NCBI GenBank assembly: GCA_030694465.1
Contig: JAUXYJ010000018.1
Span: 6,355 to 70,354 of the forward strand
Direction of reading: 5' to 3'
Source of the DNA: Deltaproteobacteria bacterium
GTDB lineage: Bacteria; Myxococcota_A; Polyangia; Polyangiales; Ga0077539
DNA: 64,000 nt
Under the pieces are notes generated by a model. It was not told the origin of the DNA, did not search any database, and saw nothing but the letters and a program-made list of their open reading frames with translations. Shown piece by piece: positions 1-12,637 of this stretch; position 1 is the stretch's first letter, and each line of letters begins with the position of its first letter. The translations under genes were made by a program, and so were the position numbers.

Positions 1-2
1 GC

Positions 3-230
3 GCGCTCGAGGCCGAGCTCGCGGCGATGCACTGGCATCCCGAGGTGGGTGAGAGCGTGCGAGAGCTCGCGACAGGTCTCTGCGGCGTCGTCTGCGACGT
101 GCGGCAGACCGGCGACGATCTGGCGCTGGTGATTGTGGCAATCCAGGTCGGCAATTCACGCGCCGCAGATGCGTGGCGCGTGGTCGAGCGCCTCACCGCT
201 GAGCTCGAGCCCGACGAGACGGAGCCGTGA
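3..230 (+). CDS. 3' end of an unidentified ORF entering from upstream of the window
   Basis: The frame is open from nt 3, with no stop before the listed ATG at 27, and ends at TGA 228-230. No recognisable motif. High G+C, unlike the following 3.4 kb. Confidence 0.3.
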   Translation, partial: ALEAELAAMHWHPEVGESVRELATGLCGVVCDVRQTGDDLALVIVAIQVGNSRAADAWRVVERLTAELEPDETEP

Positions 231-304
231 TGCTGCTGGGGCTGATCATCGCCGCGGGGCTGGGGTGGCTCGATTGGGTGAGCGGGCTCAAGCGGCACGC
301 GTGA
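230..304 (+). CDS. possible 24-aa membrane peptide (MLLGLIIAAGLGWLDWVSGLKRHA)
   Basis: Read by hand and too short for the ORF track. Its ATG overlaps the upstream stop as TGATG (228-232). It has one hydrophobic helix followed by a basic tail. No SD seen. Confidence 0.15.
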   Translation: MLLGLIIAAGLGWLDWVSGLKRHA

Positions 305-366
305 AGTGCCCCGGCCTGCGAGGTGTCCACGAAATCCGAGGATCAGCAGTTGGGGCGGGCGGGGCT

Positions 367-810
367 CTACGTTGGCACGATCTCGACCCGCATTTTACGC
401 GCGAGCCAGTGCTTGAGTTCGAGTTTGGCCGCGGGACTCTTAGGCCTCCATGCCTCTTGGTTGGGACGATCCGACGTACGACGCGTGCGGACCTCCGCGT
501 GTGCGTTATCTTCGGTCAGACTGGGGGCATCAAGCGCAATCGCCTCGCACTCGCTGCCATTGCTCAATGTAATTGGCGGCGGGAGACAAGCAGGGCTAAC
601 GACGACCACTCCCGAGTCTGTGCGTCCGCGCGCTTGGCTCCGCTTGAGAGCCTCCGCCGCGGTCGCGCAGTACTTCTGGCGAAACATGGACATCCCCTGG
701 AGATCGACGGAAGTCTCACGAAGAAAATCGCCCAGAACGTCATCCAGAGTTACGGTTCGAAAGAGTCGTTCATCGTCTGGGATCGGCTCGTCAATCGCAC
801 GCATGCTCAT
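367..810 (-). CDS. hypothetical protein, 147 aa, third gene of the island operon
   Basis: Its start overlaps the stop of the upstream gene as ATGA (807-810). Low-G+C codon usage. No family recognised. A weak ordered R18 / S41 / E87-x-E89 pattern is present. Confidence 0.55.
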   Translation of the reverse strand: MSMRAIDEPIPDDERLFRTVTLDDVLGDFLRETSVDLQGMSMFRQKYCATAAEALKRSQARGRTDSGVVVVSPACLPPPITLSNGSECEAIALDAPSLTEDNAHAEVRTRRTSDRPNQEAWRPKSPAAKLELKHWLARKMRVEIVPT

Positions 811-2123
811 CGATCACCCTTAAGGAAATCAGTCATGCGCTGGAAATGGGCTTCTAGGGCGTCTGAGTCTCTCCGGTCAGAGGGTAGATCCCACGACTCG
901 CTTGTCCCGTCCGGCTTTGCGCAGAGCACACCAACACAACCCTCTAGGTCGCACAGGATGACGAGATAACGTCCAGCGGGGTTGCCTACATAGATGCCCA
1001 CGCCGTCGTCGGCATCAAGTTGGATAGACTCGATCTTGTCGAGGTCAAATAGCCAAAGCCGTTCGAGGATTCCTCGCGCCGAGCTGAAAGCTGAGGCCAT
1101 CGCTGGCGCACTTTCCTTGCCCGTCTCAATCGGGAACCTGCTCTCCAATTGTTCTAGCCGGTCGAACCAGCGATTGAATGGGCTAAGCGTGTGTTGTCGA
1201 TACGCATAGGACTCTTTCGTCTTGCCGAGTGCGGTCGCCTTCGCGATATTCACGTCGAGGGTCAGGGCTTTGCGAAACGTCTTACCGAGTGCATTGAGTT
1301 CGGCTTCTGAGAGGCTAGGCGAGACCTGCGTGACGCTCTTGTCGATGCGAGTGTCGCGGAGGTGTCGAAACCCAAGCGAGACGCTGCCGTTTACGTTCTG
1401 ATTGATGCTGCTGCCAATCACGCGCATCGCGGCGTCTTCGTGTGAGATAGTGGTCCTTGCTGTTGTTTTACGTGCATTCTCAACGCGCGCCCGGTTGAGG
1501 TCGACGCGCTGCTTTGCCGCCTCAATGCGCAGGGTCGCCTTCTCACGATCTAGCTCGTTGCAGAACTTTTTAAGTTTCGCGAGCACCTGATCACTGATCG
1601 TAGATGCTGCATCAAGGAAGTCTTCTTCGGATCTCGCGGCACCTTCGAGGAGACCATTTAGAATCGCAATGTCGTCACTGATCCCGGCGCCGGTCCCCGG
1701 CAACGAACTGTACACCTCTTCTAGCCTGAACCCGAAGCAGCCATGTGCGATTCCGGTAATTGTCAATCGTGTGACGTCGCGGAGCGGGGGAACTCGCTTG
1801 GACTTGTAGGCCGACATGCGGTCGGCATGGATGGAAGCGATAAGATCCTGGTAATCGCCCAATCGATCAGCAGCAAACTTCGCGTCGATGCTGTGATCGC
1901 CCAAGACGGGCTTCCCGCCAAACATGAGACTCACTTCGGCACGTTGGACCACTTGGGCGCCGGCCTGATGCCTGAGTGTTGTGATTTGCGCTGCGAACTC
2001 GTCGCGCTGTGACTCAAGACCGATCCGCTCGAGGACGTTGCCGTCCACTGGCAATTCTTCAAGCACGGCCTCGATCGCTTTGATATTGACTTGGAGTTGC
2101 TCCAGCCCTTCTCGTGTGTTCAT
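807..2123 (-). CDS. hypothetical protein, 438 aa, second gene of the island operon
   Basis: Long ORF in the low-G+C block, with ATGA overlaps at both ends (2120-2123 and 807-810). The N-terminus looks coiled-coil. I found no Walker A, HEPN or nuclease motif. Confidence 0.7.
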   Translation of the reverse strand: MNTREGLEQLQVNIKAIEAVLEELPVDGNVLERIGLESQRDEFAAQITTLRHQAGAQVVQRAEVSLMFGGKPVLGDHSIDAKFAADRLGDYQDLIASIHADRMSAYKSKRVPPLRDVTRLTITGIAHGCFGFRLEEVYSSLPGTGAGISDDIAILNGLLEGAARSEEDFLDAASTISDQVLAKLKKFCNELDREKATLRIEAAKQRVDLNRARVENARKTTARTTISHEDAAMRVIGSSINQNVNGSVSLGFRHLRDTRIDKSVTQVSPSLSEAELNALGKTFRKALTLDVNIAKATALGKTKESYAYRQHTLSPFNRWFDRLEQLESRFPIETGKESAPAMASAFSSARGILERLWLFDLDKIESIQLDADDGVGIYVGNPAGRYLVILCDLEGCVGVLCAKPDGTSESWDLPSDRRDSDALEAHFQRMTDFLKGDR

Positions 2124-2698
2124 CGCGAAGCCTCCGAGGGCTCAAGCACAGCCCACGCGGCTTGGTCATCATCCGAGGTGTCGAGCGGAACCTGGACGAA
2201 CCCCTTCCACACGCGATCGCGTCGATGGGAGAGCAACCCGAACCAGTATGCAGTCAGGCGGACCAAGATGCGGTTGTCTAAGGGCGAGAGGGAGACATAA
2301 AATGCATCACATCCGAACGATTTCTTTGTCTGTTGCCGATCGAACAGATCGAGGCGAGAGCGGACGAAAAGATCCCATGCAACACCGGAGAGACCATCCG
2401 GGGGAACGACATAACTGACAACGTCCAAGTCTCTCGGCTCACGTCCTTCGTGTGACTCGACGTCTTCTAGGAAACTGCCATCGAGCCACTGGAAGCCGTG
2501 GGTGATCTTAACGGCACGAAGGGCGCGACGAAGTTGGAGTAATCCACGGAGCATCCCTCGACGCGTCGGCGTCGTGGCAAATCGCGCGACAAATGCCGTG
2601 AGTGTGACTTGGTAGGGCGATCGGGCTTCGCCTGCGACGGGTGTGCCGGTGAACGGAGGCAGGACGCCATTGATGTCGAAGTCGGGGATGGAGCTCAT
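2120..2698 (-). CDS. minimal nucleotidyltransferase (MNT / Pol-beta fold)-like protein, possibly DUF6932-type, first gene of the island operon
   Basis: I start it at the internal ATG (2698, MSSIPDFDINGVLPP...). DGSF-x14-DLDVV fits the G-S...D-x-D nucleotidyltransferase pattern. The 49-aa upstream extension in the track (to 2845) is Arg-rich and unconvincing. The family name is from memory. Confidence 0.6.
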   Translation of the reverse strand: MSSIPDFDINGVLPPFTGTPVAGEARSPYQVTLTAFVARFATTPTRRGMLRGLLQLRRALRAVKITHGFQWLDGSFLEDVESHEGREPRDLDVVSYVVPPDGLSGVAWDLFVRSRLDLFDRQQTKKSFGCDAFYVSLSPLDNRILVRLTAYWFGLLSHRRDRVWKGFVQVPLDTSDDDQAAWAVLEPSEASR

Positions 2699-3140
2699 GG
2701 TGATCAGGCATTGGGTAGATCGCTCAGGCGGCTCATTATTAGAGGACCGTCTCCCAAGGATGTCATTTGCCAGAACCAGTGCCAGACGGCGATAAAAATA
2801 GAAATGGGGCCCGTTTAGTCCAGTGGGTAATCGCGACCGTCGCACGGCTCATGCGTCATGCTCCGTATCGGGGGGGGAGCGATCGTGAGGACCCTTTGAG
2901 ATCACAAGCAGCGTCCCTCCGTCGCCCACCAAGGTCACTCGGGATGTTTGATATCTTGATCGTGCCCGAGAGCGCGCCCTCACAGCGACATCGCGCGCGT
3001 CCAAACATTAGTGGTCATGCGCAAACGATCGCGTGGATCGAGCCCGCCACGCAAACGGCAGCGCACGGGCAGACGAATCATAATCCCACACGCCGTAGTT
3101 TGTCATTCCGCCAAGTCTGTGGCGTAGTGAAGCCGTTCTA

Positions 3141-3165
3141 GGTTCAAACCGAAAGGTGTTGAACC
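3141..3165 (+). other. stable hairpin with GAAA tetraloop (GGTTCAAACC-GAAA-GGTGTTGAACC)
   Basis: Hand-folded as 10 bp with one bulged G and a GNRA loop. It lies 70 nt upstream of the small ORF at 3236 and has no T-run after it. Confidence 0.4.
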
Positions 3166-3235
3166 CCGCCAGCACCTCTCTACTTGTCGTTCGTCCTGTG
3201 AAAACGGGGGGAATCTCAAGGAAAGGAGGAAAACA

Positions 3236-3316
3236 ATGCTCTATTGGGTACTGTTTGCTGTGCTGTCGATTCACGTCGGCGTGCTCCTTGCGGAGCGTGC
3301 CATGCGTGGGACCTAG
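3236..3316 (+). CDS. 26-aa hydrophobic peptide (MLYWVLFAVLSIHVGVLLAERAMRGT), type I toxin-like or small membrane protein
   Basis: GGAAAGGAGGA Shine-Dalgarno a few nt upstream of the ATG, far stronger than at most genes here. One TM helix plus a charged tail. TAG at 3314-3316 is followed by a terminator-like hairpin. Confidence 0.35.
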   Translation: MLYWVLFAVLSIHVGVLLAERAMRGT

Positions 3317-3322
3317 AACCTG

Positions 3323-3366
3323 AAGCCCGTTGCAACGCAAGTTACCGCGGGCTTTTGCTTTTTCTT
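3323..3366 (+). terminator. putative intrinsic terminator
   Basis: AAGCCCG (3323-3329) pairs with CGGGCTT (3348-3354). There is an inner AAC-GCAA-GTT stem-loop, and TTTTGCTTTTTCTT follows. Confidence 0.45.
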
Positions 3367-3676
3367 CGCGGCAAGCCGGATTGGCGTCACAGTCACCCTG
3401 GGCGACGTGCCTATCTTGATATTGGCCTCGTAAACCTCCACTGCGTGCGGCCGTCGAGTTGATCGAGGCCTTGGCGCGGCTGCTCTCTTGCCGCGAGGGG
3501 GCGCCGGATCTGTGGGTGTTGGGCAGGGTGAGGGCAGGGCGATACGCAGAGCTGCAGGGGAGATTGGACCGGTGTTGGTGCCTCAGCACGGCTCCGCCCC
3601 TACGTATCCACTACGCCTCGTACTCGTCGTGTCACAATGCCCTGGAAATCATCACGCAAAGCCGCCGTTGACATTG

Positions 3677-3724
3677 GGACTGAAAATCCTCGTGTCGGCG
3701 GTTCGATTCCGCCCCTGACCACCA
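3677..3724 (+). tRNA. truncated tRNA-Phe(GAA), 3' 48 nt only (att-like scar), not a functional gene
   Basis: Contains the anticodon loop CTGAAAA, variable GTGTC, T-arm GGCGG-TTCGATT-CCGCC, acceptor 3' strand CCTGACC, discriminator A and CCA. The upstream 28 nt lack the complementary GGTCAGG and any D-arm. Confidence 0.7.
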
Positions 3725-3817
3725 CAACACCCGGGGGCGTGTTGTTTGGGTAGGTTGCTCTGTGTGTCCACGCTTGATTGCGTCGCACACTCGTGGCTGG
3801 ATCACGGCTCGCGGGTC

Positions 3818-5908: not shown

Positions 5909-7146
5909 ACAATCTGGAGCACCTGCCGAGCCACCGTCGAGGCTTTCACGCGCCACACTGGGTCGTTGGCCACCATCACCGCAAACGAGACGCGCGTGGT
6001 GCTGTCGTGCGCGTTGCCGACAAACCATGTGTACGCCCGATAGGGGGTGGCGGCGGTGAGCGTGCCGGTCTTTCCGCCGACGTCTACGCCCGGCAAAAAG
6101 GGGTGGCCGTGGGGGTCGCGAAACGCACGTGACGCGGTCCCTTCGGACACGCTAAACGCCATCATCCGCGTGAGCGCGGACGCTACGTCGTGGCTCACCG
6201 CGCGGCGCCACGCGCGAGGCGCTTCGTGCTGCGCGACCACGGCGCCTTGGGCGTCCTCGATGCGATCGATGATCCACGGGCGCTGCAGCTCGCCGCCTCG
6301 CGCGATGCCCTGCGCGATCACTGCGCCGTGCAACGGTGAGAGATGGCTATGCCAAAACCCAGCCGAGGCCCTCGCAAACTCGAGTCGATCGCTGGGCATA
6401 TCGATCTGCCCTGCGCTCACCGTGGCCTCAAACGGGACACTCTCGCCATAGCCCCAGCTGTGCGCCGCCGCCAAGAGCGCTGCTGGGCTCAAGCGCTCGA
6501 CCGATCGTCGCGCAAACACGGTGTTCGCGCTGCGCCCAAAGGCCTGCCCAAGCGAGACGCAGTCGCTGTCTCGGCGGGGATTAGGCTCGAGGTCTCGCAG
6601 GGACAACCGGTGCCAGCCGCCCGAAAAACAGGTCTCGGTCTCGACGGACATCCCGTTCGCAGCCAGCGCTCCGGCGGTCACGATTTTAAACACCGAAGCA
6701 GCCGGTGGGGCCGCGTCACGCGCGAGATCCGGCGCACCCGGCTCGCCGTGGGACGCGTACACCCGCACACGCCCCGTGTCGCTGTCGAGCACAACCACCG
6801 AGGCGCGCGGGAGCTGATGGGCCGCAAGGAGCGCGCTGACTCCGCGCTGCCAGGCTGGCTCAAGAGTGAGCACCGCGCGGCGATCCCCAGGCAGCTCCGA
6901 GACGTATCGGTCGCCAAGGCGTCGCGCGTGGCTTGGGTCAAACCCTGCCACGGGGCGCTCAATGCTGGTCACGCGAGGCGCCGGAGTCGCGCTCGCTGTG
7001 GCTCCGGTGCGAGCAGCCTCTTGCGCGAGGCGCGTGTCAGGAGAGCGGCGCTGCGCGTCCGCCACACGGCGGGCGAGCAACACTCCCGGAACAGCGCCCA
7101 GGAGCGCACAACTTACAGCGAGCAGCGATAGTCCACGACGGTGCAT
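5884..7146 (-). CDS. penicillin-binding protein, transpeptidase domain
   Basis: SxxK (ASVFK), SxN (SAN) and KTG (GKTGT) motifs, with an N-terminal signal/TM segment. Confidence 0.85.
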   Translation of the reverse strand: MHRRGLSLLAVSCALLGAVPGVLLARRVADAQRRSPDTRLAQEAARTGATASATPAPRVTSIERPVAGFDPSHARRLGDRYVSELPGDRRAVLTLEPAWQRGVSALLAAHQLPRASVVVLDSDTGRVRVYASHGEPGAPDLARDAAPPAASVFKIVTAGALAANGMSVETETCFSGGWHRLSLRDLEPNPRRDSDCVSLGQAFGRSANTVFARRSVERLSPAALLAAAHSWGYGESVPFEATVSAGQIDMPSDRLEFARASAGFWHSHLSPLHGAVIAQGIARGGELQRPWIIDRIEDAQGAVVAQHEAPRAWRRAVSHDVASALTRMMAFSVSEGTASRAFRDPHGHPFLPGVDVGGKTGTLTAATPYRAYTWFVGNAHDSTTRVSFAVMVANDPVWRVKASTVARQVLQIVYRGRSTD

Positions 7147-7321
7147 TTTTGGCCTCTGGTGACAACTCAGGGCGATAGCGGATCCCTTCCCTGTGGGTCA
7201 AATTCTGTACCAAATCCGAAGCTGCCCACAAGCGCGTCCCTGAGGGCTCTGCGGGAGGGCCTCGCGCACTTCGTCAAAAGTCTGCTGGAGTCTTGGTCTA
7301 TGGCTCTGTTAGTGTGGCCTC

Positions 7322-8233
7322 GTGTCACGAGACTCGGACACCACCAGCCCAGAGCACACCATGATCATGCGCGTCGAGCGCACGGTCTCGGAAGGGCCTA
7401 AGGGCGCATGCCTCGTCGTAATCTACGGCGCGCAGATTGGCCGACGGATTGAGCTGGTCGGTGCTCCGTTAGTTATTGGCCGCTCGCCACGCAGTGATTT
7501 GCAGCTCGACGAAGAGAGCGTCTCGCGGCAACACGTGCGGTTCGAGCCGCTGCCCGAGAGCGTCGAAGGCAATGGCTGGCAGGTGGTCGATCTTGAGAGC
7601 ACCAACGGCACCTACGTCAACGACGTGGTCACCGCGCGTGCGACCCTGAGGCACGGCGACCAGATCCAAGTAGGCCGCTCAATCCTGCGTTTTCTCGAAG
7701 GAAACAGCATCGAACGCGCCTACCACGAAGAGATCTACAACCTCATGTCGATGGACGGTCTCACGCAGCTGCGCAACCGCAGGGCGTTTGACGAGTCACT
7801 CGTCGAAGAGATCCTTCGCAGCCAGCGTTTCGGTCGACCGCTGAGCATCAGCGTCATCGACGTGGACAAGTTTAAGCTCGTCAACGACCAGTACGGTCAC
7901 CTCGCGGGCGACGCGATCCTCCGACAAATCGGCACCATCCTTCGCAATAACATCCGCAAGAACGACATCGCGGGTCGGCTCGGCGGCGAAGAGTTTGGCG
8001 TGATCCTTCCCGAGGTCGATCGCGTCGGCGGCGTCGTGGCGGCAGAGAAGCTGCGGCGCTTGGTCGAGTCCCATCGCTTCGAATTCGATCGCACCGTGAT
8101 CCCCGTCACGATCTCGATGGGGGTCATCGAGCGCTTGCCCAAAGAGCGCGAGCCCAACGAGCTGATCAAGCGCGCGGACGAGCTGCTCTACAGGGCCAAG
8201 CACAACGGCCGCAACCGCGTCGAGAGCGCGTAG
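7322..8233 (+). CDS. FHA domain-containing diguanylate cyclase (GGDEF)
   Basis: FHA signature (GRS...SRQH...STNGTYVN), then RNRRAF...GGEEFGVILP and a C-terminal AD.LLY.AK..GRN. Confidence 0.9.
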   Translation: MSRDSDTTSPEHTMIMRVERTVSEGPKGACLVVIYGAQIGRRIELVGAPLVIGRSPRSDLQLDEESVSRQHVRFEPLPESVEGNGWQVVDLESTNGTYVNDVVTARATLRHGDQIQVGRSILRFLEGNSIERAYHEEIYNLMSMDGLTQLRNRRAFDESLVEEILRSQRFGRPLSISVIDVDKFKLVNDQYGHLAGDAILRQIGTILRNNIRKNDIAGRLGGEEFGVILPEVDRVGGVVAAEKLRRLVESHRFEFDRTVIPVTISMGVIERLPKEREPNELIKRADELLYRAKHNGRNRVESA

Positions 8234-8492
8234 TGAGCCAAGAGAGTCGCTGGATGGTCGAGCCATTCGCGGCGGGTGCGACACGCACTTGGCTTGAATA
8301 TTTGCAGCGCTGAATGGCTCTGCTCGCCGCGCGATTGCGTCGCAGGCTCCCCAATGAATGACAGCGTGTAGAGGCCTTCTTGGTGGCTCTGGACGTTGCT
8401 CTCGCCGACGCTGGGAGGACTGTTCGCAGGGATGATCTTGCACTGGTTCGTCCCCAGTGCTGCTGTCCCCCCGGCAGCTCGCTCAGCCTCGC

Positions 8493-10199
8493 TCAGCCAA
8501 TGGGTGGCTGCGCGGTGTTGGCCGGCACAATGATAAACACGTCGCGGCGGTCCACCTCGGACATCGCGCGCCCAAGCACGACGATGGTCGCGCGATAGAG
8601 CGTCGCGGCGGTCCCACCAGGCTGAAAGTCGTTGTAAAAATCGACTTCGAACTCAACGATCGCGTCGGGCGACACGTTGTAGAACGTGGTCATGTCACGG
8701 CGCGCGTAGCCCGCAGGCGCCTCAGGCGTCGCCCCAACGGGCGTGACCGAGCGCAAGAACTCCGCGGTGGTGCGCCCCATGGGCAAGCGCATCTCCATGC
8801 GATCCGGATCGGTCCGCGTGGTGATGTCCTGCCGCGACTGTCCCGCGATCGTGGTGATCGCCGAGACCACGTTGGCAGCGACCGTAGCAGGGGCCCCGCG
8901 GAATGTGATGGGTTGTCCCATGCCGTCGAAGGTCATGGTCGCGCGGGCGAGAGTGGTCGACGCCGCCTGAGTGCTTCCGCCGCCCACATCAATCCCAATG
9001 AAGTACGCACCTCGCGCGACCATCTCGCGCTGAAGGTCTGAATACACCGGAACAGCGAATGAATAGTTGTTGGGGAGGCCGGGGCCGTTGTGCCATGGAG
9101 CGTCGGAGAAGAGCACCATGATCGGTACACGGCCTGGCAAGAAGCAGCCCCAGCCGTAGGGCGTGGGCTCATCGGGAGCCATCCCGCAGTCCCGTACAGG
9201 ATCCATGCGACGCGTGGCGGTGCCGTAGTACAAAGGATGCCCGCTGCCTTCGATGAGGGCGTGCATCGCGGGCATTTGGGACTCAGGGCCGTCACCACCA
9301 CCATTGGCTGCCAGCCGACCGGTCGCGGTCTGCACCAACGCAGCGTTGGGCGTAAGTCGCTGATGCACCCTCACACAGCCGTCGGGGTTGCTCCCGCCTC
9401 GGTCAAAGTCCCCGTGCGCAGCGAGTCCGTAGCGGATGTTGCCCATCGGCCCGATTGCGCTCACGATGCCTGGGACGATCGTTCGCATCAGGCTGCTCTG
9501 GACCGCGGCAATCGTCGCTCCCATCGAGCCCGTTGTGTCGACCAAGAAGAACACGTCCGCCGCACGAATTCGGGTCTGAAACGTAAACCGCCGCTGCACG
9601 TGGGGGCCCATCTCCGCCGGTGGGTGGTAGGGCAGGGTCACGTAGAGCGAGCCTGTGGGGGGCATGGACGCGGGGTCCGCGGGGTTGCTCCCGGTGACGC
9701 GCTCGGTGAGGTCTGGGACGCCGTCCATGTCGCTGTCTTCGGCGCAAGAGTTCGTGCCCGCCATACGCTCTTCGGCGTCGCTCAGGCCGTCGTTGTCCGA
9801 GTCGAGGTCTCTAAAATTGGGTCGCCCATCGCCGTCACAGTCGTCGGCAGTGATCCCACAGACGAGCGTCGGTCGCGGGGGCATGACGCCCGTGTAATTG
9901 CCCACAGCCTCGTCGATGTCGGGGATGCCGTCACCGTCCGAGTCCGGGTCCATCGAGTCGGGGATCCCGTCCATGTCCGTGTCGCCGTTCTCGAGGTTGT
10001 CGGCGATCCCGTCCATGTCTGTGTCCACACATGGGGGAGGCACGTACGCGTCCGTGCCGCCTCCGCCTCCGTCGACGCCCCCGCCCCCACTGTCGCGTCG
10101 CCCACCATCACCAACAGGGTTTGGTACATCCTCGCCGCAGCCGATCATTGCCACGAGAACAACCGGAGAGAGCACTCCCAACCATCGTTTGCGCATCAT
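8493..10199 (-). CDS. secreted lipoprotein with thrombospondin type-3-like Ca-binding repeats and a VWA domain
   Basis: Lipobox (VAMIGC). DxDxDGxxD repeats (DTDMDGIADN, DPDSDGDGIPD, DLDSDNDGLSD). VWA MIDAS-like FFLVDTTGSM. Confidence 0.8.
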   Translation of the reverse strand: MMRKRWLGVLSPVVLVAMIGCGEDVPNPVGDGGRRDSGGGGVDGGGGGTDAYVPPPCVDTDMDGIADNLENGDTDMDGIPDSMDPDSDGDGIPDIDEAVGNYTGVMPPRPTLVCGITADDCDGDGRPNFRDLDSDNDGLSDAEERMAGTNSCAEDSDMDGVPDLTERVTGSNPADPASMPPTGSLYVTLPYHPPAEMGPHVQRRFTFQTRIRAADVFFLVDTTGSMGATIAAVQSSLMRTIVPGIVSAIGPMGNIRYGLAAHGDFDRGGSNPDGCVRVHQRLTPNAALVQTATGRLAANGGGDGPESQMPAMHALIEGSGHPLYYGTATRRMDPVRDCGMAPDEPTPYGWGCFLPGRVPIMVLFSDAPWHNGPGLPNNYSFAVPVYSDLQREMVARGAYFIGIDVGGGSTQAASTTLARATMTFDGMGQPITFRGAPATVAANVVSAITTIAGQSRQDITTRTDPDRMEMRLPMGRTTAEFLRSVTPVGATPEAPAGYARRDMTTFYNVSPDAIVEFEVDFYNDFQPGGTAATLYRATIVVLGRAMSEVDRRDVFIIVPANTAQPPIG

Positions 10200-10387: not shown

Positions 10388-12637
10388 CTATTTTAAGAGT
10401 CTCATTGTCCAACGCCCACGGCTATCCACTGCACAGCGCAGCCCCAATCTCCTCACTCGCCGCGCGGCGATCGCGGCTCCGAAGTTGTCGCCTGGAAGCC
10501 CTCGCAGCACTGTGGATGCAACGGCCCGGAGAGCTCCCCTGCTCCCATGAAAAACTCGGACGACTCCCCCTGTGATTGGGAGTGGTGAACCCAACAAGAA
10601 ATCAGAGATCCCATCGCCGTTGATGTCGCCAGAGATGGCGAGCGACTGCCCCAGCCGTTCGGCAGAAGTCGGTCCCTCGATCACCGTTGCGGACGAACTG
10701 AGCATGCCTGCCAATTGTCCGGCAAAAATCAAAGCGCCTCCTGCGTCTGTTCGTGCGGACGGAGACAAGAATGGAACGCCTACGATGAGATCCGCCATCC
10801 CGTCGCCGTTGAGATCGCTGGTTGCACTCATTGGCAAACCGAAAGCGAAGATCATACTGGGCCCCTGCACTCGCTGACGGGGTACTGCCACTGGTCCTGC
10901 ACTGCCTCCAGCAAAGATCCGAATCTCGCCCGTGCCTGTCGGGGTGGTTGCGGCTTGGGCTGTGATTGCCAAGTCTGAGTAGCCATCGGCGTCGAGATCC
11001 CCAGAAGAGATGGCCCCACCAAACAACTCATTCACTCCTCCTTCAATGATTCGAGAAGGCATCATTGAGGGGCCAGTCCTGCTTCCCTGAAAGACACTCA
11101 CCACCCCCGCGGACTGTCGTCCCCCTGGGGTTGCATTGGGTGCTCCGATGGCGAAATCCCCGAACCCATCGCCGTTGAGATCGCCGCCGGACGCCACGGC
11201 TTCGCCAAAGTTGTTGTCTTCTGCTTGTCCGTAAAGCACGAGATAGGGTGTTCTTGCGATCCCAACGCTGCTGCCCAAGAAAACACTTGCTGAACCCACT
11301 CGTGGGAGGCCCATACGAGCTGTGTACGGAGCGCCAATGACGATGTCTGCGTAGCCATCCCCGTTGACATCGCCAACACCTGCAATCGAGCGCCCAAAGT
11401 AGTCGTACTCAGGCGTTGGTCCCTCAAGGACAGCACCTGGTGAGGTCGCCAAACCTCCAGCACCACCCAGGTAAATCTGTGCTTTGTCTCCGGTGTCAGC
11501 CCCCACGATCAAATCCGCGTACCCGTCGCCATTGACGTCCCCTGCGCTCGCAACGGCGCTGCCCAGCCCGTCGCCCGCGTTGACGCCCTCGATCACCGCG
11601 CTCGGGGTGGTCCCGATGCCCGCGGCGCTGCCGTAGAACACCTGCACCACGCCCGCGCCCATGCGCCCGCCTGGGGCGACGTTGCTCGCGCCCACCGCGA
11701 CATCGCCAAAGCCGTCACCGTTAAAATCCGGCTCGGTCCCCCAGGACGTATCCACCGGAGCGCTGCGAAATCCCACGCGAAATTGCCACACAGGGCTCGT
11801 GCGCGATCCCTCGGTTCCGGCTTGTACTCCGCGGAGTCGCCAGTACCAGAGGCCCGGAGCGAGGGCCGCCGCGGGCTGCGCGCGGTTGGCCGCCACGGTC
11901 ATCGATTGGCACATCGCGGTCATCGCGCGATCGCGACACAGCTCGACGCGGGCCATGGTGAGCTCCATCGCGGGTTCCCATCGCAAGGTGGGCCTCTGCG
12001 AGGTGACTGTGCTGGTGCTCATGGGCGCGATCTGTCTGGGAATTCTCAGCTCACACGCGCTGCCCACTCGCTCGTATCCCGGCGCACACGCCACCCCGCA
12101 CATGCCCATCGTGCACGTCGCGATGCCCCCCACAGGGGCCGTGGGACACGCGACGCAGCTCGTCCCACACGAGGCCGGTGAGTCATCCGCCCGGCACTGC
12201 CCATCGCACAGGTGCCTCCCAGGGTTGCACGTGACCTCGCACATCCCCGCGTTGCACGACTCAGTGCCCCCAAGGACCACCGGACACGCGCGCTCACAGC
12301 GGCCACAGTTGCGCGGATCTGTCTGCAAATTTGCACATGACATCCCACATTGAGCTTGCCCTGTCTCGCACCCGGCGACGTCGCCGGATGTCTCGGCTGC
12401 GTCGAAGCTCGCGTCTCGGGTCCCGCCCTCGAAGATCGCGCCGTCGGGGCCGTAGCAGGTCTGCATACGAGTCGAGATTTCACACGATGTAATGCACATC
12501 TCGATCGACGAGAAATACTGCGCGGGCGCAGTGCACCTCGGCGGTGGCGTCGTGCACCCTACGCCCACGAGCCCGATCCCCAACAACCATCCAGCGCCCC
12601 AAGTCCATCGTCCCACCACAGTCATCTGAGCCTCCAA
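10388..12637 (-). CDS. FG-GAP (integrin alpha-like) repeat lipoprotein with a Cys-rich N-terminal region
   Basis: Lipobox (GVGC). NCGRCERAC-type Cys modules. Multiple FG-GAP/Ca motifs (DFNGDGFGDVAVGA, DVNGDGYADLIVGA and others). Confidence 0.85.
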   Translation of the reverse strand: MEAQMTVVGRWTWGAGWLLGIGLVGVGCTTPPPRCTAPAQYFSSIEMCITSCEISTRMQTCYGPDGAIFEGGTRDASFDAAETSGDVAGCETGQAQCGMSCANLQTDPRNCGRCERACPVVLGGTESCNAGMCEVTCNPGRHLCDGQCRADDSPASCGTSCVACPTAPVGGIATCTMGMCGVACAPGYERVGSACELRIPRQIAPMSTSTVTSQRPTLRWEPAMELTMARVELCRDRAMTAMCQSMTVAANRAQPAAALAPGLWYWRLRGVQAGTEGSRTSPVWQFRVGFRSAPVDTSWGTEPDFNGDGFGDVAVGASNVAPGGRMGAGVVQVFYGSAAGIGTTPSAVIEGVNAGDGLGSAVASAGDVNGDGYADLIVGADTGDKAQIYLGGAGGLATSPGAVLEGPTPEYDYFGRSIAGVGDVNGDGYADIVIGAPYTARMGLPRVGSASVFLGSSVGIARTPYLVLYGQAEDNNFGEAVASGGDLNGDGFGDFAIGAPNATPGGRQSAGVVSVFQGSRTGPSMMPSRIIEGGVNELFGGAISSGDLDADGYSDLAITAQAATTPTGTGEIRIFAGGSAGPVAVPRQRVQGPSMIFAFGLPMSATSDLNGDGMADLIVGVPFLSPSARTDAGGALIFAGQLAGMLSSSATVIEGPTSAERLGQSLAISGDINGDGISDFLLGSPLPITGGVVRVFHGSRGALRAVASTVLRGLPGDNFGAAIAARRVRRLGLRCAVDSRGRWTMRLLK

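Follow-up and report, generated by a model that had tools for sequence, protein, structure and literature searches.

A three-gene variant of a widespread nucleotidyltransferase-partner module in a Polyangiales genome

In this work, we analyzed an operon of three genes near the left end of a 64,000-nt stretch of DNA from a Deltaproteobacteria bacterium of the order Polyangiales (GenBank assembly GCA_030694465.1, contig JAUXYJ010000018.1, positions 6,355 to 70,354), which is referred to as the window and whose numbering is used throughout. The operon lies on the minus strand and is read in the order A, B, C. Gene A (2120-2698) encodes a 192-aa DUF6932 protein that resembles the minimal nucleotidyltransferases (MNT) of the Pol-beta type, gene B (807-2123) encodes a protein of 438 aa, and gene C (367-810) is a coding gene for 147 aa that has no detectable family. 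The product of gene B is composed of a core common to a widespread family of ~310-aa partner proteins (residues 1-313, nt 1185-2123) and of an acidic C-terminal extension, the X domain (residues 314-438, nt 807-1184 including the stop codon). Stop and start codons overlap as ATGA at both junctions, A/B at 2120-2123 and B/C at 807-810, where the plus strand reads "tcat". A first-pass annotation, made from the letters of the window, had described three coupled minus-strand genes; the open reading frames (ORFs) and both junctions can be read in the sequence, and A, B, and C form a single translationally coupled unit. The longest ORF available for gene A extends from 2120 to 2845 on the minus strand; its start was placed at the ATG at 2698, giving 192 aa, because the N-terminus of the family, MxIPxF, fits there. 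The 4-nt overlap of A and B recurs in most of the two-gene loci described below and in a second three-gene locus, L087, where the overlap of B and C is found as well.

Gene A matches the Pfam family PF22014 (DUF6932) over model positions 1-141 of 142 with E=4.4e-29 and 102 bits (cut-off 27), as well as phrog_9194 (E=6e-27). It also covers 125 of the 152 positions of the PADLOC model PDC-M63A (PDLC04744) with E=5.7e-11, and plasmid homologs of A match the same model (E=2e-12 to 6e-10). When 36 members of the A family were aligned, G74, S75, D90, D92, and D131 were found to be invariant. Since these residues make up the hG[GS]...DxD...D signature, we call A a Pol-beta-type nucleotidyltransferase (NTase); the catalytic-type residues are encoded on the minus strand at nt 2474-2479 (G74-S75), 2423-2431 (D90-x-D92), and 2306-2308 (D131). 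R46, R57, Q70, W71, and a near-invariant SH-R...WKG motif are also conserved in this alignment. Moreover, A-family members weakly match PDC-M05A (E=6e-5), the NTase of PDC-M05, which is a pair of an NTase and a HEPN protein (PMC12988326). The PF22014 match, the invariant motif, and the weak similarity to PDC-M05A bear out the initial description of A as an MNT-like NTase. The motif on which that description drew is indeed present in gene A, with a spacing of 13 residues (DGSF-x13-DLDVV) rather than the 14 given. Sequence and profile searches of the PDB detected no solved structure for A (in the profile search, nothing at E≤10), and none of the papers searched mentions DUF6932.

Word-indexed homolog searches for B and C gave almost nothing, and the B family was found by an exhaustive HMMER search. 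Window B belongs to no Pfam, NCBIfam, or PADLOC family (PADLOC: nothing at E≤1), and none of 134 B-family members has a Pfam family; residues 27-228 of B match phrog_18731 with E=2e-23. At E≤1e-3, the search returned 608 representative clusters, nearly all of them proteins of ~310 aa aligned to residues 1-230. A single relative is full-length (P0004, 53% identity), and two proteins match the C-terminal part only (P0005 and P0019). Phe, Gly, and Pro together with one Glu are near-invariant in the family and lie within two motifs, FGGxPVxG and G[SC]FGFxLEE, and the aligned sequences show no apparent catalytic set. The absence of Walker A and HEPN Rx4-6H motifs noted in the first-pass annotation holds for Walker A; single Rx4-6H strings do occur in A (R61-H67) and B (R223-H228), with neither His in a conserved column of its family.

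An AlphaFold2 model of B built on the family alignment reached a predicted local distance difference test score (pLDDT) of 88 and a predicted template modeling score (pTM) of 0.81. In this model, a coiled-coil helical hairpin (residues 3-55) is followed by an alpha/beta domain that bears both conserved motifs (residues 63-222), by a predicted oligonucleotide/oligosaccharide-binding (OB) fold consisting of a five-strand barrel with an inter-strand helix (residues 225-313, nt 1185-1451), and by an extra helical hairpin, a five-strand beta-meander, and a helix (residues 317-435). The pLDDT is 72-93 over most of residues 314-438. Foldseek found no global match to the model in the PDB, and local matches to the OB folds of single-stranded DNA-binding protein (SSB), RPA, and ExoVII (probability 0.9-0.99). 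Foldseek reports no query coordinates, and these matches were assigned to residues 225-313 because the topology of the model fits there. In the BFVD database, the top matches to the model are uncharacterized phage proteins (E=2e-9 to 6e-7). PDB sequence and profile searches with B, the B family, and the C-terminal domain returned nothing significant. A SLOG- or LOG-like identity of the alpha/beta domain, considered for its Gly-rich motifs, was rejected, as the predicted topology is not Rossmann-like.

The association of A with the core of B extends far beyond this operon. The GSFGFxLEE motif was used to collect genome loci, of which 297 were confirmed in total and 80 make up the set used here. 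Of the 80, 76 have enough upstream sequence, and in 72 of these B is immediately preceded by an A-family gene, usually with an overlap of 4 nt; all 48 viral-contig loci have an A-family gene in this position too. When viral contigs were searched independently by A-family motifs, a B-family gene was found directly downstream in 78 of 79 loci. Three plasmids, of Bradyrhizobium, Methylobacterium, and P. aeruginosa, likewise carry a DUF6932 gene directly before a B-like gene. Thus, A and the first ~313 residues of B constitute a nearly obligate two-gene module. Its hosts include Alpha-, Beta-, and Gammaproteobacteria, Acidobacteriota, Polyangiaceae, Planctomycetota, Cyanobacteria, Leptospira, Latescibacterota, and two methanogen metagenome-assembled genomes (MAGs), and two-gene homologs are found in Citrobacter (L063), Pseudomonas (L006, L080), and Xanthomonas. 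In the two-gene loci, the region after B holds no conserved third gene; a cluster of third genes from eight loci, including L003, is most likely an antisense shadow, since in L003 it overlaps a DUF6527 gene on the opposite strand, and was set aside. One protein of 468 aa, P0148, combines a DUF6932 domain (E=8e-33 to A) with the N-terminal region of B; because the sequence at the junction is odd, a frameshift in a gene pair may account for it better than a true fusion.

Several loci depart from the usual layout. In L034 (4046-5863) and L049 (4100-5860), a coiled-coil ATPase of ~600 aa with a Walker A motif, and not a DUF6932 gene, precedes the B-family gene. These ATPases are probably the two DUF2326 matches among the neighbors, and B-like proteins may also be partners in ABC-ATPase conflict systems. 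In two Latescibacterota genomes, an ORF of ~1093 aa begins 6 nt past the stop codon of the B-family gene (L049, 6904-10188; L069, 6904-10185) and could be a large third component. In the isolates Xanthomonas bonasiae (L035, 5346-5968) and Pseudomonas brassicacearum (L077, 5700-5852), A is either split or present as a fragment next to a complete B ORF, and split or truncated A-family genes also stand beside an intact B in L043, L048, L050, L057, and L083; these could reflect decay of the NTase or errors of assembly.

The three-gene form, including the C-terminal domain of B and gene C, was found in only one other lineage. P0004, the full-length relative of B, is encoded on NCBI contig LNEO01000242.1 (L087) in an identical arrangement with 4-nt overlaps: a 191-aa DUF6932 protein (9429-10004), B' of 438 aa, and C' of 149 aa (11314-11763), which share 70, 53, and 61% identity with A, B, and C, respectively. 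The region that the window shares with L087 runs over exactly 370-2725 of the window, ending ~27 nt before the start of A, with no relationship between the flanks; therefore, the cassette moves or persists as a unit. Proportions of non-synonymous and synonymous differences between the two loci (pN/pS) are 0.21/0.67 for A, 0.32/0.72 for B, and 0.24/0.75 for C, and by this measure all three genes are under purifying selection. In all three genes, the mismatches fall mainly on third codon positions, which is why we regard C as a genuine gene. In the flanks of L087 (6116-7852 and 11863-18258), an AIPR gene lies two genes upstream, and a 1039-aa MmeI-type restriction-modification gene and a 1090-aa DUF4379/helicase/methyltransferase gene lie downstream. 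Two further neighboring genes, of 342 and 289 aa, have no Pfam family. The cassette thus recurs as a unit in L087, in a defence-island context, and it is only A and the first ~313 residues of B that are widespread. The C-terminal domain of B and gene C are a rare add-on to this core.

C' is the only homolog of C that was found. Gene C has no match in Pfam, PADLOC, NCBIfam, PHROGs, or the PDB, and no homolog turned up in a word search of 5.8 billion proteins, in plasmids or phages by tblastn, or in all fetched loci by jackhmmer; when metagenomes and viral sequences were scanned with an alignment of C and C', the sole match came from the same lineage as L087. A model of C predicted by AlphaFold2 from the single sequence was unusable (pLDDT 37). 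It had been suggested, as a weak lead, that C recalls the R-S-ExE triad of ADP-ribosyltransferase toxins. The residues R18, S41, E87, and E89 are present in C, and C' keeps R18, S41, and E89 and has Gln in place of E87. However, survival of R, S, and QxE carries no weight, as it is expected by chance at 61% identity, and the searches of those five databases gave no ADP-ribosyltransferase match, so that the lead has no support.

The 125-aa C-terminal domain of B (isoelectric point 4.5) is absent from the two-gene family, and no homologs of it were found in plasmids, phages, or viral contigs. It does occur as a free protein of ~100-130 aa: P0019, encoded on a 715-nt contig (L089), is 51% identical to residues 352-438 of B. 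There it lies downstream of an ORF with a DPPY motif of the DNA-methyltransferase type and is followed, with a GTGA overlap, by an ORF that begins (M)RALDL, where residues 4-8 of C, after Met3, read RAIDE. The second partial relative of the domain, P0005, has a gene 2 nt downstream. These partial sequences hint, weakly, that the A-B core was extended by fusion with a small two-gene pair made up of the C-terminal domain and C.

The operon is foreign in composition to its surroundings. Its G+C content is 57.7%, relative to 65.3 +/- 1.6% for all equal-sized windows in 3725-64000 (minimum 60.4%), and its G+C at third codon positions (GC3) is 0.64, against 0.68-0.82 for twelve neighboring genes; the compositional difference first noted from hand counts is thus borne out by both measures. 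On the left, window 1-366 and a further 214 nt available from an independent Logan contig (L001) have ~70% G+C, and since the left flank is already at this level, the low-G+C block is short (~370-3700, ~3.3 kb). It is closed on the right by a 3' fragment of a tRNA-Phe gene on the plus strand, from the anticodon arm to CCA (3677-3724), beyond which G+C is back at the genome level. The fragment was matched by eye and has partial Rfam support: on comparison with the tRNA-Phe of E. coli, 3674-3724 corresponds to the anticodon arm (GAA), variable loop, T arm, and ACCA end, and Rfam gave a T-arm/acceptor-like match only, at 3697-3755 through the transfer-messenger RNA (tmRNA) model (E=0.0019). ARAGORN called no tRNA gene anywhere in the window. 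The independent Logan contig ends within the fragment, at window 3706. We read the fragment as what is left of an attachment site, at which the acquired block ends on the right. No matching direct repeat of it was found at the left border, and no integrase-like sequence was found in the spacer and edge (2699-3760). The earlier description of a tRNA-linked island therefore stands insofar as a foreign block is bounded by a tRNA fragment; the block is only ~3.3 kb long and has neither an integrase nor flanking repeats, and the island is probably a decayed relic.

A spacer of ~1 kb (2699-3676) with 58.5% G+C and no credible gene separates the operon from the tRNA fragment; it may be decayed island DNA containing the operon promoter. 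A blastx search of the spacer against all fetched loci matched solely the window's own duplicate contig (L001), and a scan for promoters and terminators found sites no more numerous than in shuffled controls. A gene caller predicted a 193-aa ORF on the Logan contig, at 3008-3589 on the minus strand, that has no Pfam match; judging by its Arg/Ser/Ala-rich sequence, it looks like an out-of-frame artefact. Directly left of the operon, a 113-aa ORF without a Pfam family ends at window 230 on the plus strand (L001 3477-3818) in DNA of 70% G+C, and for this reason the acquired block appears to have been inserted between this ORF and the tRNA-Phe fragment. Right of the block are chromosomal genes for a DUF3025 protein, an arginyl-tRNA-protein transferase, a penicillin-binding protein transpeptidase, and an FHA-GGDEF protein. 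FHA-GGDEF, TSP3-repeat/VWA, and FG-GAP-repeat proteins are encoded at 7322-8233, 8493-10199, and 10388-12637, respectively. Along with a G+C content of ~65% and a best B-family match in a MAG of Polyangiaceae (L007), these genes point to a host of myxobacterial type.

Elsewhere, the neighborhoods of the A-B pair contain recurrent families. Among 136 immediate neighbors, raw counts without a baseline were 9 for ThiF, 7 for prokaryotic JAB, 6 for phage integrase, and 3 for AAA_21/AriA, and type I restriction enzymes, GajA/Old, HEC-01, PDC-M68B, and DUF4238 also recurred. In about nine loci of Alpha- and Gammaproteobacteria, a ThiF (E1) gene stands convergent after the DUF6932 and B genes; such ThiF-linked loci are L003 (5916-8748) and L014, L023, L027, L036, L039, L058, L061, L073, and L084 (about 7100-8900, minus strand). 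In the annotated L003, the ThiF neighborhood is a DUF6527-ThiF-multiubiquitin operon. The association may be a functional link or may stem from one co-mobile island. In about 30 of the 48 prophage-like contigs, no more than 7.5 kb separates the pair from the nearest end.

The closest described relative of the A-B pair is PDC-M63, which by its name belongs to a set of 145 "guilt-by-embedding" computational candidates for phage defence in PADLOC (bioRxiv 10.1101/2024.01.29.577857). PDC-M63 is a two-gene cassette whose A component is homologous to window A. The PDC-M63B model has 309 positions, the same length as the B family, several members of which match it weakly (E=1e-5 to 3e-4). On the strength of the solid match of A to PDC-M63A and the weak matches of the B family to PDC-M63B, we regard the A-B pair as a remote relative of PDC-M63, from which the window cassette differs by the 125-aa C-terminal extension of B and by the third gene. 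PDC-M63 has been reported inside a prophage; a search by DNA similarity for E. coli PDC-M63, starting from the Citrobacter locus, found no match. PDC-M32A, a model of 375 positions, is matched by 12 of the 134 B-family members (best E=4e-7) and not by window B, and no A-family protein matches PDC-M32B; the candidate PDC-M32 has been reported in Sinorhizobium prophages (PMC12429752). The phage protein that Foldseek ranks first for B in BFVD is annotated DUF6575 (E=2e-9, probability 1.0, TM-score ~0.3), a domain also carried by one of the E. coli PD systems validated by experiment (Vassallo et al., 2022; PMC9519451). This is a structural lead only; the B family has no Pfam match to DUF6575 and no match to any PD-T4, PD-T7, or PD-lambda model.

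Resemblance to the HEPN-MNT type VII toxin-antitoxin (TA) modules, equivalent to PDC-M05, lies in the small Pol-beta/MNT NTase with its GS...DxD...D residues, encoded first and coupled to a partner. Unlike the partner in those modules, B is not a HEPN protein, as neither B nor C gave a HEPN match and R223-H228 is not conserved, but is instead composed of coiled-coil, alpha/beta, and OB-fold parts. AbiE (AbiEi/AbiEii) and MenAT are two-gene mobile modules with an NTase-fold active component and offer a possible analogue, in which RNA or tRNA ends would be nucleotidylated. The NTase is the downstream gene in AbiE and MenAT, whereas NTase A is upstream here and its partner is unrelated; A, B, and C have no DUF1814/AbiEii or AbiEi/MenA-type match in Pfam or PADLOC. 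Likewise, neither A, B, and C nor the 134 B-family members match any PADLOC model for the cyclic-oligonucleotide-based antiphage signaling system (CBASS), its CD-NTases, or its effectors. The initial view that the gene combination fits no named system is therefore correct for validated systems and has to be qualified for computational candidates, given the match of A to PDC-M63A and the remote link of the B family to PDC-M63B and PDC-M32A. We thus view the cassette as a new variant, with three genes, of a widespread NTase-partner module that has so far been known only as a remote computational candidate.

Taken together, we favor, at roughly even odds, a reading in which the operon is a conflict cassette that moves horizontally and acts by abortive infection or in the manner of a toxin-antitoxin system, with A as its sole core enzyme, B as a non-catalytic regulator, sensor, or substrate-presenting partner, and the C-terminal domain and C as an accessory pair of immunity protein and effector. 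We infer the defence role, the substrate, and the identity of the effector. In such a cassette A, predicted to be a catalytically competent MNT-like NTase and the sole core enzyme, would transfer a nucleotide to a target. This target could be B itself, as for MNT in HEPN-MNT modules, or a single-stranded nucleic acid or tRNA end held by the OB fold of B, as for toxins of the MenT/AbiEii type. B would act as a non-enzymatic regulator or sensor that couples the activity of A to infection or stress, and its acidic C-terminal domain and the coupled gene C would probably be an accessory antitoxin/immunity-plus-effector pair grafted onto the core. We propose the graft because the domain exists free elsewhere and is there followed by an apparent C-like gene.

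A number of observations weigh against the favored reading. None of A, B, and C contains a recognizable effector or toxin domain, C has neither a family nor a usable model, and the free pair of C-terminal domain and C rests on six residues. Window B matches no PDC-M63B model in PADLOC at E≤1, and PADLOC would for this reason probably miss the locus. In the only test of PDC-M63, PDC-M63AB was deleted in E. coli NILS69, and no defence phenotype was seen (bioRxiv 10.1101/2024.12.20.629700). The A-B pair is absent from 50,697 deposited phage genomes, even when viral-contig queries are used. The window extends only 366 nt beyond the left end of the operon, and it shows no defence gene next to the operon. 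Finally, many of the ThiF-linked loci may be related islands, several of them perhaps a single conserved one, and the neighbor counts have no baseline.

Other explanations account for parts of the evidence. The operon could be a plain TA or addiction module with HEPN-MNT (type VII) logic and no dedicated anti-phage role, in which antitoxin A would nucleotidylate a toxic, nucleic-acid-binding B and C would be a second toxin held by the C-terminal domain of B. The remote MNT-like similarity of the A family to PDC-M05A points in this direction, as do the presence of the module on plasmids and in prophage-like regions and the acidic domain ahead of a small gene, which looks like an antitoxin-toxin pair; the NTase-first order and tight coupling also resemble MNT-HEPN. 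Yet B has neither a HEPN domain nor a conserved Rx4-6H motif, and the defence-island neighbors fit defence at least equally well. In addition, A is broken and B intact in L035 and L077, a state that would be lethal if A were the sole antidote, unless B were inactive too; the intact B in these two loci mildly disfavors A as an essential antidote to a toxic B. We consider a plain TA module unlikely.

The predicted OB domain of B, closest in structure to ssDNA-binding proteins, RPA, and ExoVII, raises the further alternative of a non-immune accessory of mobile elements, in which A would be a template-independent NTase that acts with an SSB-like partner on ends of ssDNA or RNA in replication, repair, or protection of the element. 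Such a role would suit the fold relatives of B in phage proteomes and the PHROG families of both A and B. It is quite improbable, however, given that the pair is missing from the deposited phage genomes, is found near contig ends in most of the prophage-like contigs and beside defence genes in chromosomes, and is present here in a ~3.3-kb block without other element genes. The intact active-site motif of A would also permit CBASS-type signaling, with A producing a nucleotide second messenger, B serving as its receptor through the glycine-rich loops FGGxPVxG and GSFGFxLEE, which are conserved without catalytic residues, and the extra gene C supplying an effector in the three-gene form. We hold this to be very improbable: the PADLOC models for CBASS, CD-NTases, and effectors found no match, an effector is lacking altogether from the common two-gene form, and A (~190 aa) is far smaller than CD-NTases.

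It is conceivable, although in our estimation rather doubtful, that the DUF6932 and OB-fold pair represents a new and widespread NTase-based immune mechanism, such as an infection-triggered nucleotidylation of a nucleic-acid end or of a partner, that B is a new sensor architecture reused with other enzymes (the ABC ATPases of L034 and L049), and that the fused immunity-like domain couples the core to a new effector or toxin fold in C. Many candidate defence cassettes of this general kind exist, and one without a phenotype is a useful lead and not a surprise. Still, the three-gene variant is a natural experiment on how such cores acquire effector and immunity modules. Identifying the substrate of A would extend the repertoire of nucleotidyltransferases in biological conflict, which includes MNT-HEPN, AbiE, MenT, and CBASS, and a large "dark" family, comprising at least 608 clusters of B at 50% identity, would gain a function.

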